Source: Octopus vulgaris (Eukaryota). Taken from it: 64,000 nt of DNA. The DNA is taken from positions 41,292,001 through 41,356,000 of the forward strand of contig OX597830.1 in the NCBI GenBank assembly GCA_951406725.2. Direction: 5' to 3'. The translations under genes were made by a program, and so were the position numbers. Shown here piece after piece: positions 30,561-57,500 of the stretch. Numbering within the stretch: the first letter of the stretch is position 1; each line of letters begins with the position of its first letter. The notes under the pieces were generated by a model. That model had not been told where the DNA came from. It saw only the letters and a program-made list of their open reading frames with translations, and did not search any database.

Positions 30561-32754
30561 GGTTGATACTATTTAAACCCCAGGCAAGCTCTGACTGAAC
30601 AGACCTGTGATCAAGGATGTTTCACCAATGACCACTATATTTTATTTATTTATTTATTTATCTATTTTAGATATGATGTTTATAAGACCACATTGGTCAA
30701 TGTGTTCATTGCAATAAAGTATGATTTGAGGGAAATTAGGTTACTATTTCTAGCAAAATTTTGTGACCATATAGAGTTCTCTGTCATTGCATTAAACTAA
30801 TTTAATGAACATTATTGATGATCAGTCAGATGTAGTTTACTTGTATTTCGGTAATTACTTCAGTTGGTCAGTGCTGTTACTGTTTAGTATTCAATATGGT
30901 ATAATATAGCATGGTAGTTACTATTATTGATGGCCATTGAAATACAGTAAAGTTACAGAAATGTTAGATACAATGTCTAAATGTCTTGTACTATTTAGCT
31001 TTCTTTTTCCTCATTCTGTGTTCAGTTGCTTCTGGTGGTAATTGGTTAATAAAAATAAGCACCTGGAATCTATAGTAGTTGATCTAATTGGTTATATTCA
31101 TCACCATCATCATCCTCATTTCAATGTCCACTTTTCTGTGCTCACAAGGGCTGGATGGAATTCATTGAGGAAAATTTTCTTCAACTGGATGCCCTTTCTG
31201 TTTCCAATTCCCACCTGTTTCCAAGCAAGGTTATAGTTCCCCATGATCAAGCATGTTCTTCACTGAAGATTGGAACTGAAAGACCTCACTTCCATGATGG
31301 TGACACTCATTTACAGCTATCACACAATGTGAAGGCAAAGAGATGGTAAAACACACAGACACACACATATATATTCAACAGGCTTCTTTCAGTTTCCATC
31401 TACCAAACTCACTCACAAGGCTTTATTTGGTCCAAGGTGCTATGAAGTAAGACTGAACTTAGAACCATGTGGTTGGAAAGCTAACCTCTTACCACACACC
31501 ACACCTGTACCTTTATAAATTTGTGAACCTGTACCAATGAAAGAAATCATGATTTTTGCCTAGGGTGGTAGTTTAGCAAAATTGGTAATGCATTAAGCCA
31601 AACGCAATAAATTTTCTCCAATTTAGCACCGTAGGGTCAAAGGGATTGATGGATAACTGAATATTTTGGATATTGGATCATCAGTTTTTAAATTACCATA
31701 GCTCCTTACCAAAATCATTAAAACTCTCTCTCTCTCTCCCTATATATATACATATATATATACATATATAAGTTTTATTATTAATATTCTGAATATAATG
31801 GAAATGAAAGAAATAGGAAGAAATAAAAGTATAATTTAAGTCAAATTGCAGCTTGTGGGACTTTCTGAGTGGCAAACCTAACAAAAATTTACTTTCAATT
31901 TTTTTTTGTTGTGTGTCCCAGCTGATAAAGAGCCATGTCTCATGTGGCCCACTTCTCAAAATAAAAAAAAATGCCTGATTTAAGTAAAGAGCGAGTTTTA
32001 TTTACCAAACGAAATACGGGTAAAATAAAAATGCAGTAAAATAGAATGCTGTACTTCGAGAAGCACCAATCCAATTTAAATACTGTAGAAATTACCGTTT
32101 TTTTTAAATGACTATTAATTAATTAAAACAATTTCTCTTAACTCTAATTAGCAGCACATTTTCTTATATATTTCTTTTCTCGGTGCTAGTTGCTTGAGAA
32201 TTCTGTGTAATTGAATTTCAGGTAAAAGGGAGTTTACTGTACATAGATGCTTTTATTGTCACGGTTAACTTTGTTCTCTATCTTTCTAGAGTTCATAAAA
32301 TAAGTGCCAGTCAGATACTTGGGTTCATATAATTAACTGTTTCTGCCTCGGCAGTGTATAGTCACAAGCAATAGTTGGAAAGAAGCTGGCAGAATCATTA
32401 GCATGCTGGGGAAAATGCTTAACAGCATTTCCTCCATTTTCACATTCTGAGTTCAAATTCCACCGAGGTTGACTTTGCCTTTCATTCTTTCAGGGTCAAT
32501 AAATTAAGTACCAGTGAAATACTGGGGTCAGTGAAATCGAGTTAGTCCCTCCCCCGAGATTTCAGGCCTTGTGCCTTTAGTAGAAAGGGTTATTTACCAA
32601 TCACAAAAGCCATTAACCATCTTCATGCATGTTATTGACCATTGTGATATAGCATGTGGCTCAATGTTATTGGTCAGTTTAGTATAGCTACATGATTATT
32701 ATTGTTGCTATGGTTACGCTATTATTGGCAAATGTGATATAGCTATGTGGTCAA

Positions 32755-33240
32755 TACAGTTCTATATTTAAGAGATGAGGAATTATGTACATTATTTACA
32801 TTTGTCGGATATTTGTTTGTTATTAACACAACGTTTCGGCTGATATACCCTCAAGCCTCCATCAGGTGTCTTGGGGAAATTTCGAACCTGGGTTCTCATT
32901 CCTAAGGTATTTTTCAATGTTATCCTTATTATTATTCAGGTCACTGCCTGGAATCAAACTTGGAATCTTGGGGTTGTAGTCTGCGCTCTTAACCACTATG
33001 CCCATGGGCATATGACGTAGTGGTTAAGAGCGCAGGCTACTAACCCCAAGATTCCAAGTTTGATTCCAGGCAGTGACCTGAATAATAATAAGGATAACAT
33101 CGAAAAATACTTTAGGAATGAGAACCCAAGTTTGAAATTTCCCCAAGACACCTGATGAAGACTGGAGAGTAAATCAGCTGAAATGTTGTGTTAACAAGAA
33201 ACAAGATGAGGACAAATATCCGTCAAATGTAAATAATGTA
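32755..33240. mobile_element. Palindromic element: head-to-head tRNA-like heads, each followed by a hammerhead motif
   Basis: 32788-33004 pairs with 33005-33240 around TATGCCCA|TGGGCATA. tRNA-like head at 33006-33078 (A-box TAGTGGTTAAG, B-box GTTTGATTCC). Hammerhead motifs at 33147-33192 (+) and 32825-32870 (-). Confidence 0.8.
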
Positions 33241-34297
33241 AATAATAATATGTGGTCAGTGTTATTGATCATTGTGATACAGTTGTGTGATATATTACTG
33301 CTATGAGTCAATACAACTTTGGTAATTTCTGTTACTGGTCAGTATGATATGTTAGCGCCATGTTATTCTTGTTACTGATCACTACATTATGTCTATAGCT
33401 TTTATCTTCTGGCAGAACCGTAAGCATGCAAGGTGAAATGCGTAGCCGTATTTTGTCTGCCATTACGTTCTGGGTTCAAATTCCGCCGAGGTCGACTTTG
33501 CCTTTCATCCTTTCGGGGTCAATAAATTAAGTACTGGGGTCGATGTAATCGACTTAATCCGTTTGTCTGTCTTTGTTTGTCCCCTCTGTGTTTAGCCCTT
33601 TGTGGGTAGTAAAGAAATATATCTTAGACCCATCCTCCACAGCAGAGGTGTTAATGTCGCTCCCCCTGCTAAAGAGGATTATCCTGCAAGAGCCCTGTGC
33701 CAGTGTCACATAAAAGCCACCTGTGCTGGTGCCTTGTAATAGCGCTTGTGCCAGCACCATGTAAAAGGGTCCATGTTGATGCCACATAAAAAGCACCCAG
33801 TACACTCTGTAAAATGGTTCATGTTAGGAAAGGCATCCAGCCATTGAAACTATGCAAAAACAGACAACTGGAGCCTGGTGCTGTTCTCCAGTTTGGCAGC
33901 TCTGGTCAAACTATCCGTACCAGCATGGAAAATCGATATTAAATGATGATGATGATGATGATGATGGTGGTGATTTTTTATATTAATTATTTATTTTACT
34001 CAGGACAGTGAGTTAGCAGAACCATTAGCACTCAGGACAAAATACATAATGGCATTTCATTTGTCTTTTATGTTCTCAGTTCAAATTCTACCAAGGGCAA
34101 TTTCGCCTTTCATCCTCTTGGGAGTCAATAAAAACCAGTCTCAATTGAGCACAGGGTGATGTTATCAACAAGTCCTCTACCCCAAAATTTCAGGCCTCAG
34201 GCCTACAGCAGAAATAATTAATTATTCGTTTACTAATCCTTTGATTAATTAGTTAAGTAATGTCTTTATTAATTAATTTATCATGTTATATTTTCAG

Positions 34298-51673: not shown

Positions 51674-52199
51674 AATAAAATATTAGGGAATAAATCCAAA
51701 CTTACAGGGAAAAATCAGATTTAGGATTGAATCCAATTTTATAGTAAAATATTATATTATATTAAATTAGAGATAAAACCACTATTAGGCAAATCATACA
51801 ATGAAAAACTTAAGCCAATACATAAGATTAATTAATTTATATTATTTAAATATATATCAAAATTATTAAAAAAGATAATTAGTATAACACTACGATCGTT
51901 TCATGGCTGTCCAATTCTTAAAATTTCGAGTTACAGTCATTCTTCAGGTGGTTTAAATATTTAACTTAGCGAGGTTTAATCGCTAAGTTAAATATTTAAA
52001 CCACCTGAAGAATGACTGTAACTCGAAATTTTAAGAATTGGACAGCCATGAAACGATCGTAGTGTTATACTAATTATCTTTTTTAATAATTTTGATATAT
52101 ATTTAAATAATATAAATTAATTAATCTTATGTATTGGCTTAAGTTTTTCATTGTATGATTTGCCTAATAGTGGTTTTATCTCTAATTTAATATAATATA
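51674..52199. mobile_element. Fold-back element with perfect 220-bp arms and a hammerhead motif in each arm; Penelope-like pLTR-derived
   Basis: 51753-51972 is the reverse complement of 51980-52199 (loop GGTTTAA); unpaired ~80-bp extension on the left; flanked by (TA)n on both sides. Confidence 0.85.
52002..52064 (+). ncRNA. Type I minimal hammerhead ribozyme motif (mirror copy on - strand at 51888-51950)
   Basis: CAC-CTGAAGA-ATGACTGT...ACAGCCAT-GAA-ACGATCGT-A-GTG: intact CUGANGA and GAAA core, helix I CAC/GTG, helix II 7 of 8 bp, palindromic helix III, GUA cleavage triplet. Confidence 0.8.
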
Positions 52200-56109: not shown

Positions 56110-57500
56110 AAACTTTCATCTAAACTGCAAAGGCTGCTTCCTAAGTCACCCTCCAGCAAGCTCTTCTCCTTGAGAAACTTGATGAACACTGTATTCTTGC
56201 TTTCATCATCAACAAACTTTCTGACTGTCTGGATCTAAAATCTTGGAAAAAAAAAATTTTTCTGGATCACTAGCTTCTTGTCATATCACAGTATGTACTG
56301 ATGGAGGTCTTTCTTTAACACACATTCTATCAATCCTGGTGTAGGCTTTAGTTTTGCCTTTTATGCTCTTCCTCTTATACATTGATGACCTGGATGTTGC
56401 CACATTCATGACTCGCCCTAACTTTCTGCATCTAAGTGTCCATCTGCAGTGTAAACACCTTACACCAAGTCTGTACTGATTCTATTAACATGGATCTTAT
56501 AAACCTCCTCCAATGTGATCATCAATTTTATCTTCTTTTGCAGCAAAAATAGAGTCACAAATAAAAAAAGTAAATAAATAAGAAATTATCCTACTGCACT
56601 GCACTCGGCCTAAACATGAATGGCACTCAATTGGGACCTTTGCAATCACTTCAAATGCTAAACCTCATTCACTATCTCAAATGTAGCAAGTATTGCATCA
56701 CAAAGATTGGCTTTCTTGTTGAGAACCAGAAAGTACTTCAACCCTTAATGCAACTGTTAACCCTTCTACTAAACCCAGATGAGATCTACACTGGAATACT
56801 GTTCCCAAATGTGAAACAAAATGTTGTTACTGTTCTGTATTTTAGAGATGAAGAATTCTGTACATTATTTACGTTGGAAAGATATGTGTCCTCATCTTGT
56901 TGATTGTTACCACAGTGTTTCGACTGATTTCCTCCCTGGTCTCCATCAGGTGTCCTGGTGGAATTTTGAACCCAGCCCTGGGCATATAGCATAATGGTTA
57001 AGAGTGCGGGTTACTAACCCCAAGTTTCCAAGTTCAATTACAGGCAATGCCTTTAATAATAATAATAATAATAATATCAGCAAAAAATACCTGAGGAATG
57101 AAAACGCAGGGTTGGATCCAAAATTCCTCCAGGACACCTGGTGAAGGCTGGGGAGTAAATGAGCTGAAACGTGATAACAACAAACAAGATGAGGACACAT
57201 CCGTCCTATGTAAAGGTGTTGCTACACAAAAGGCATTTTAGACAGTGTCCAGAGTAAGGCCACTCAACTGATTTGCATGAAGTCACTCACAAACACAATC
57301 CTGTCTCAGATGTCTCCTCTCTTTACCTTTTCTATTGCTTCAACAGTTACCTTTGATCCTTGGATCAGATTGATCTTGTACCACCTCAGACACATGTCTC
57401 TCCTTTGATCATCACCTGTATTGTGTCCATCACCACCACCACTCATGCTAAGCCCTCTACCAACCACCATTCTAGTCCCTTCTCACCAGAGTGTCATCCT
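56110..57500 (+). mobile_element. Decayed LINE (Jockey/CR1-group-like) reverse-transcriptase remnant, split by the 56828-57214 insertion
   Basis: Frameshifted motifs INPGV...MLFLLYIDDL (~56330-56392), TQMRSTLEYCSQM (~56770-56812) and LDSVQSKATQLI (~57238-57274). Confidence 0.65.
56828..57214. mobile_element. Second, more diverged copy of the tRNA-head/hammerhead palindromic element, inserted in a LINE remnant
   Basis: Aligns by eye to 32755-33240 (tttagagatgaagaattctgtacattatttac...; gggcatatagcataatggttaagagtgcggg...; gacacctggtgaaggctg...gctgaaacgt). Left arm lacks the tRNA head. Confidence 0.75.

Follow-up and report, generated by a model that had tools for sequence, protein, structure and literature searches.

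A tRNA(Arg)-like A/B-box module in the terminal repeat of an autonomous Penelope/Poseidon-type element of Octopus vulgaris

INTRODUCTION

EN+ Penelope-like elements (PLEs) have been described as carrying a single ORF of about 840 aa that comprises an RT and, at its C-terminal end, GIY-YIG (PMC3846280; Craig 2021, 10.1101/2021.04.23.441226; PMC2377424, each as far as its accessible parts go). A tail at one end only, representing the next piece of the ORF, is known from the rotifer and Drosophila elements according to the available sections of PMC3846280 and PMC2377424, and the minimal PLE hammerhead is characterized in the accessible text of Cervera & de la Pena 2014 (PMC4209133) by a bulge after position 9, G10.1-C11.1 and a palindromic helix III. 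What initiates the RNA, why copies become inverted and what roles the tail and the hammerhead play are open issues of PLE transposition. In cephalopods, the accessible parts of three papers (PMC6962438, PMC8967140, PMC13282606) report PLEs, SINEs and 235 squid hammerheads without linking them.

Here we describe a fold-back insertion in a stretch of 64,000 nt (hereafter the window), and conclude that each of its arms is almost certainly a terminal repeat (pLTR) of ~270 bp belonging to an autonomous element of Penelope/Poseidon type in the same genome.

RESULTS

A two-armed insertion with head-to-head arms

The fold-back occupies positions 32755-33246 of the window (position 1 is the first letter; all feature coordinates are given in this way). 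A preliminary description, made from the sequence alone, had recognized a fold-back with head-to-head arms, which is real, and had put its length at ~450 bp, which is too short: it measures about 490 bp, and its two arms are 88-94% complementary (MFE z = -37 for the predicted fold versus 100 shuffles). Each arm starts with a tRNA-like head, after which come (AAT)n, some 50 bp in which the parent ORF's ATG lies, a hammerhead motif and about 55 bp, and the left arm only is extended by a further 27 bp, where an unpaired tail of ~30 bp had been correctly noted. The features are as follows.

32744-32753, plus strand: left target-site duplication (TSD), 10 bp, assessed by the family-wide TSD test
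32755-32781, minus strand: one-sided 27-bp tail, equal to the parent ORF sequence 3' of the pLTR in tandem copies
32755-33002, minus strand: left, tail-bearing arm, pLTR unit positions 9-271, 3.9% from the family consensus
32825-32870, minus strand: left copy of the minimal type I hammerhead motif, with a change at core A9
32897-32899, minus strand: ATG, left copy, opening the 835-aa ORF of the parent in tandem copies
32937-33002, minus strand: left tRNA-like head, first 8 nt missing (5'-truncated); B box 32951-32959
32999-33010, no strand: near-palindrome of 12 bp, native to the parent and situated where the two heads meet
33000: G at unit position -6, putative RNA start
33000-33246, plus strand: right, tail-less arm, pLTR unit positions -6 to 244, 5.8% from the consensus
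33006-33080, plus strand: tRNA(Arg)-like head of the right arm, in which the A box spans 33013-33023 and the B box 33058-33066
33081-33097, plus strand: (AAT)n spacer of the right arm, with a private variant common to the left arm
33118-33120, plus strand: ATG of the parent ORF, right copy
33147-33192, plus strand: right copy of the minimal type I hammerhead motif, with damage to helices II and III
After 33187: predicted hammerhead cut site, right copy; motif in frame with the parent ORF
33249-33258, plus strand: right TSD
56828-57214, no strand: another two-armed insertion of the pLTR, older than the first (divergence 16-19%)

The few substitutions noticed earlier in each hammerhead proved to be A9 to G and a helix II mismatch on the left, and two helix II changes and one helix III change on the right; the window copy is a decayed two-armed pLTR insertion, itself dead. 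The flanking word tatgtggtca had been proposed as a possible TSD, which fits the sharing of flanks throughout the family: words of at least 9 nt were common to both flanks in 17 of 47 two-armed insertions versus 19 of 3000 mismatched pairs.

Two other repeats of the window were recorded in passing. Copies of a highly abundant repeat of ~125 bp, which has box-B-like words and is probably a tRNA SINE, flank the fold-back (32386-32511 and 33409-33534), and a near-perfect AT-rich palindrome of about 390 bp at 51780-52140 (centre near 51976), unrelated to the pLTR unit, carries a hammerhead-like word pair on both arms.

The unit is the terminal repeat of a Penelope/Poseidon-type element

An autonomous PLE with RT and GIY-YIG that shares the 3' region, for which a search had been suggested, was found. 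Sequence shared upstream of the head in three copies (L002, L046 and L128) translates as a GIY-YIG C-terminus. A search with this sequence gave 30 ORF-end loci, the query included, and every one of them runs on into the whole unit or a portion of it. Walking 5', the pLTR or the tail was seen to join the ORF body directly in five of the eight longest 5' loci. The parent consensus is a 2,652-bp monomer with the order ORF stop, 29-bp gap, tRNA-like head, (AAT)n, ATG, hammerhead and body; in the tandem consensus, the ORF begins with an ATG at unit position 116, comprises 835 codons and passes through hammerhead, tail, RT and GIY-YIG, and partial-tandem pLTRs with the ORF start inside also occur (for example, L177 and L198). 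The PLE machinery, the pLTR-type minimal hammerhead and the inverted partner had been correctly surmised, the parent being an RT/GIY-YIG element with its own pLTR. The proposed chimaera, a non-autonomous SINE whose 3' end derives from a PLE pLTR, had to be abandoned: the whole unit, head included, is the pLTR of the parent.

The 835-aa consensus ORF carries DKG, YVDD and CCHH-type motifs. A Pfam scan of four fragments gave no significant match; homologues carry PF00078, and two of them also PF01541. Identity of the protein is 75% to P0001 and 56% to P0018. The peptide derived from the hammerhead recurs at the N-terminus of P0018, a distant PLE protein (residues 18-84, 51% over 67 aa), and dual coding of the hammerhead within the ORF may be conserved. 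The RT-EN linker lacks in the consensus the zinc finger that is present in other PLEs of this genome, indicating the Penelope/Poseidon rather than the Neptune/Nematis type, an assignment by the criterion of Craig 2021, as given in the accessible part of that paper.

A GIY-YIG family search returned mostly Neptune-type PLEs with no common 3' end (20 loci), and a pattern search omitting (AAT) returned 25 loci, nearly all of them truncated copies, of which only L128 led to the parent. Beside nine distant metagenome relatives, a regular-expression search saw no convincing A/B box. In one metagenome contig (L206:2387-2430), a PLE-type ORF is followed downstream by a clean minimal hammerhead; no A/B box was found there. 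Among the PLEs of the octopus genome, a Neptune-type family (L061-L080) looks young, many copies keeping a 781-aa open frame with identical scores (e.g. L067, L072), and has tandem repeats in its 3' UTR; two PLE loci (L155 and L169) match at 97% including their flanks, suggesting segmental duplication.

A tRNA-like head and its A and B boxes

The earlier reading of the junction as two head-to-head tRNA-like heads with A and B boxes is upheld: the boxes stand at tRNA spacing and both are perfect in the consensus, and the family head aligns to the genome's own tRNA-Arg(TCG) with z = 8.2, the best of 20 tRNAs that represent few isotypes. As in a tRNA-derived SINE, the tRNA-like head with its A/B boxes forms the 5' end of the unit. 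ARAGORN detected no tRNA in the window and Rfam neither tRNA nor hammerhead in the fold-back region; on a near-consensus copy, the Rfam tRNA model gave only a weak score (10.8 bits, E 8.7). Retroposons derived from tRNA were reportedly described in octopus by Ohshima and Okada in 1994, and the pLTR head may be linked to the Arg-derived octopus retroposons.

Family size and the pairing of arms

The genome contains 5,993 arm candidates, and the presence of an arm in 3 of 40 evenly placed 10-kb stretches corresponds to about 21,000 insertions (95% interval 4,300-61,000). Nearly identical words also turn up in runs that bear three different organism labels. In two-armed insertions, the 3' region is present in both arms. 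An inverted 5'-truncated partner, a one-sided tail and a variable TSD are all found in the family, whose TSDs are imperfect as well as variable and whose ends are ragged and asymmetric. No two-tailed pair was seen among L001-L030; the tail-less arm ends at unit positions 231-245. Such tail-less ends (e.g. window 33226-33246, L002, L006 and L126) often bear an extra copy of a 9-bp unit, which resembles telomerase-type reiteration or slippage at priming.

Comparison of the two arms in 47 pairs showed that the tail-less arm reaches further 5' in 27 (in 15 by >30 nt), the tail arm in 13 (in seven by >30 nt), and that both are similar in seven. Neither arm can thus be a copy of the other in every pair, and RNA was probably the template for both; an origin of the second arm by simple cDNA fold-back alone was rejected, since the tail-less arm is longer by >30 nt in 15/47 pairs. 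Non-CpG variants are common to both arms in 9.5% of cases within pairs versus 3.4% in unpaired arms, and at position 64, over the range covered by both listings, pairs were 8 GG, 8 AA and 0 mixed (P about 2e-5). This within-pair concordance reflects the same source, the same period or conversion, and could also reflect subfamily age.

A step of 5' ends at the head

Genome-wide exact matches to patterns with 24 fixed bases numbered 6,801 at +101, 3,741 at +13, 699 at -32 and 660 at -144 (successive ratios: 0.55, 0.19 and 0.94). The counts drop 5.4-fold at the start of the head and are flat beyond it, indicating that about 80% of the arms that reach the head stop there. When 30 arms were picked solely by their 3' end, one ran into the ORF, 12-13 ended at -16 to +9 and 16-17 at +42 to +143. 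There was no excess of ends between -14 and -10 (339 vs 470 matches, consistent with divergence alone), and the step therefore lies inside -10. Of 51 non-palindromic junctions, 13 have their start between -5 and -8 and none has it between -9 and -24; G(-6) is preceded by a non-parental base in 213 copies. Pol III gives starts of this kind, 13 nt ahead of an A box and on a purine preceded by a pyrimidine. The tRNA-like A/B-box module likely serves as a Pol III promoter, as the preliminary description had inferred, and would set the 5' end of the template RNA.

RNA reads were searched in four of 24 listed runs, at about 6% of each raw run, and showed presence only. In two raw runs (11,558 and 8,759 reads), they cover the unit and the ORF equally from both orientations, and 65-69% of them run on into unrelated sequence, a pattern that fits host read-through. 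Neither a pile-up of read starts or ends at the head or the cut site nor any direct indication of Pol III use was seen in these runs, the strandedness of which is unknown.

Over its 2.9 kb, the sense strand of the parent contains no TTTT, for which synonymous ORF shuffles average 2.9 (P 0.026-0.029, with four bases tested). This deficit is a hint only, because G4 is also absent from the ORF (P 0.30) and A4 is low (P 0.07). Three Neptune-type ORF stretches of the octopus genome contain T4 six or seven times (null 4.8-5.6) and the PLE ORF of L206 16 times (null 17.1). That Pol III might read the whole 2.9-kb element, including the 835-codon ORF, from a captured tRNA-type promoter is rather unlikely.

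The hammerhead motif and the ends of copies

The consensus of 54 aligned arms has every feature of the minimal PLE hammerhead as described in the accessible text of PMC4209133, and it matches the arm consensus put forward earlier, GACAC-CTGATG(A/G)-A-GGCTG-loop-CAGCC-GAA-AC-GT-T-GTGTT with a loopless palindromic helix III. Among 52 arms, the motif is perfect in four and the core intact in nine; Rfam returned no hammerhead match on the window or on a near-perfect copy. The 3' ends of inserted copies lie 45-85 nt beyond the predicted cut site. With a purine in place of the preceding T taken as the sign of a 5' end among the matches, no pile-up was detected at the cut site (179/9,108, 2.0%, vs 93/6,398, 1.5%, at a control site), indicating that cleaved 3' fragments make up at most about 1% of the templates. 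Hammerhead cleavage does not set the ends of inserted copies.

Alternative origins of the head and of the short copies

A somewhat unlikely alternative to a Pol III promoter takes the tRNA-like head and (AAT)n for a passenger, an old SINE or tRNA retrocopy lying in the 3' UTR of an element whose pLTR promoter is of Pol II type, and assigns the step to the Pol II start or to fold-back or self-priming of RT at the 12-bp hairpin. Head and (AAT)n do resemble a tiny SINE, and the Rfam tRNA score is weak, but both boxes are perfect in the consensus. Pol II would agree with D. virilis Penelope, whose promoter, in the accessible part of PMC2377424, is internal and of Pol II type, has Inr and DPE and is the only Penelope promoter tested; TATA-like and Inr-like words also lie upstream of the octopus head, at -36 to -14, yet the Inr-like word shows no excess of ends. 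As for the hairpin, the step coincides with this short native structure, which could stop or redirect RT without any promoter; perfect head-to-head junctions centred on the 12-bp near-palindrome occur at about 340 loci (556 matches, most counted twice), and palindromes at inverted junctions have been ascribed to self-priming (PMC3846280, accessible part). However, simple fold-back cannot produce a tail-less arm that exceeds the tail arm, and the positions of the non-palindromic junctions indicate that RT traverses the entire hairpin before it ends. We therefore favour the head as a promoter over the head as a passenger.

The short copies might instead, in line with the preliminary description, belong to a separate SINE family that is driven by Pol III, has independent master copies and is mobilized in trans by the PLE. 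Short arms starting at the head outnumber ORF-linked arms about 4 to 1, and a solo pLTR, having boxes, hammerhead and tail, could be a source; but the head belongs to the parent at all 30 ORF-end loci, and short and ORF-linked copies have the same consensus, with the position-64 variant at 136:77 in ORF-linked versus 294:207 in head-to-head arms (Fisher p = 0.21). A subfamily difference at position 64 that had appeared at one point was an artefact of selection with the query and disappeared in the genome-wide count. The position-64 subfamily mix of short versus ORF-linked copies across the genome revealed no distinct SINE lineage, so that we regard an independent family as quite improbable. 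A type I hammerhead and long inverted arms would also suit a retrozyme, which was among the first candidates, with tandem units and cleavage-defined circular RNA, or a fold-back DNA transposon or MITE. Both are largely refuted and hardly credible: the copies are dispersed and inverted rather than tandem hammerhead-to-hammerhead units, no excess of ends marks the cut site, and in place of the constant TSDs and terminal inverted repeats of a transposon with no PLE partner there are variable TSDs, ragged and asymmetric ends and an RT/GIY-YIG parent. The terminal repeat of the Penelope/Poseidon-type element, with its head as the probable promoter, is the reading followed below.

DISCUSSION

A scheme for the formation of two-armed copies can be proposed. 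RNA would start at about G(-6), 13 nt upstream of the A box, and the PLE enzyme would nick both strands about 7-13 bp apart. On RNA from one source, cDNA would be primed at each nick, with one priming site in the tail and the other some 30 nt upstream, and both cDNAs would reach the 5' end of the RNA or stop early, after which their 3' ends may join via the native 12-bp near-palindrome or microhomology. The templates could be the first ~275 nt of the full-length RNA or transcripts of solo pLTRs, and in either case the parent would shed SINE-like copies of its own promoter. The hammerhead might act as a recognition or dimer motif, in a non-cleaving role in copy formation.

With about 20,000 insertions and a sharply defined 5' landmark, the family offers evidence, by counting, that RNA of one source was the template for both arms and that copy ends are not set by cleavage, and it points to one base and two boxes. 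If the boxes work, the element would be an autonomous retroelement with an adopted Pol III promoter, a situation deemed unlikely for the autonomous partners of LTR elements (Kojima 2024, PMC10886601, accessible part), and would offer a direct route for a SINE to arise from inside its driver. If full-length Pol III transcription were true, a protein-coding retrotransposon would run on Pol III with its own 5' end as a built-in SINE, which would outnumber the parent several-fold. In practice, short pLTR stumps would probably end up annotated as tRNA SINEs or MITEs, and the family may be catalogued in Repbase, Dfam, SINEBase or the repeat library of PMC13282606.

Comparison with known systems

In the literature searched, which falls short of most subscription papers, no report of a tRNA-type promoter in the pLTR of an autonomous PLE was found. 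The animal non-LTR retrozymes share with the octopus unit the type I hammerhead and a relation to PLE pLTRs, but are tandem, reportedly promoterless and give cleavage-defined circular RNAs, as the accessible portions of PMC7761336 and 10.64898/2026.07.22.740005 describe them; the part of the latter preprint that is accessible makes no mention of tRNA or a promoter. In the SINE-like Sm-alpha/Sj-alpha repeats of Schistosoma (PMC6765202, in its accessible sections), a type I hammerhead comes after a Pol III promoter, as in our reading of the octopus unit, but these repeats are tandem, their hammerhead is canonical and active, and no protein-coding parent is described there. In the TRIMp3 elements Cassandra, Helenus and Ajax, a Pol III promoter derived from a small RNA, possibly by SINE insertion, resides in the terminal repeat; these are non-autonomous LTR elements whose autonomous partners are expected to use Pol II, whereas the octopus repeat belongs to an autonomous PLE (Kojima 2024, PMC10886601, as far as accessible).

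The minimal hammerheads of PLEs, from what is accessible of PMC4209133, have the same core, bulge, G10.1-C11.1, short helix I and loopless palindromic helix III as the octopus motif, with no structural difference, and the octopus motif sits inside a predicted coding frame. With the EN+ PLEs, as portrayed in the accessible parts of PMC3846280, Craig 2021 and PMC2377424, the octopus element has in common the single RT/GIY-YIG ORF, the first codons in the pLTR, a 30-40-bp tail at one end, an inverted 5'-truncated partner, an 8-10-bp TSD and an upstream pLTR holding the promoter, a putative one in octopus. Among PLEs, the inversion, the tail, the TSD and the hammerhead are familiar. The promoters described for EN+ PLEs are of Pol II type, whereas the octopus pLTR begins with a tRNA-like A/B-box module at which most copies stop, and it is this tRNA(Arg)-like module inside the pLTR of an autonomous PLE that makes the element unusual.
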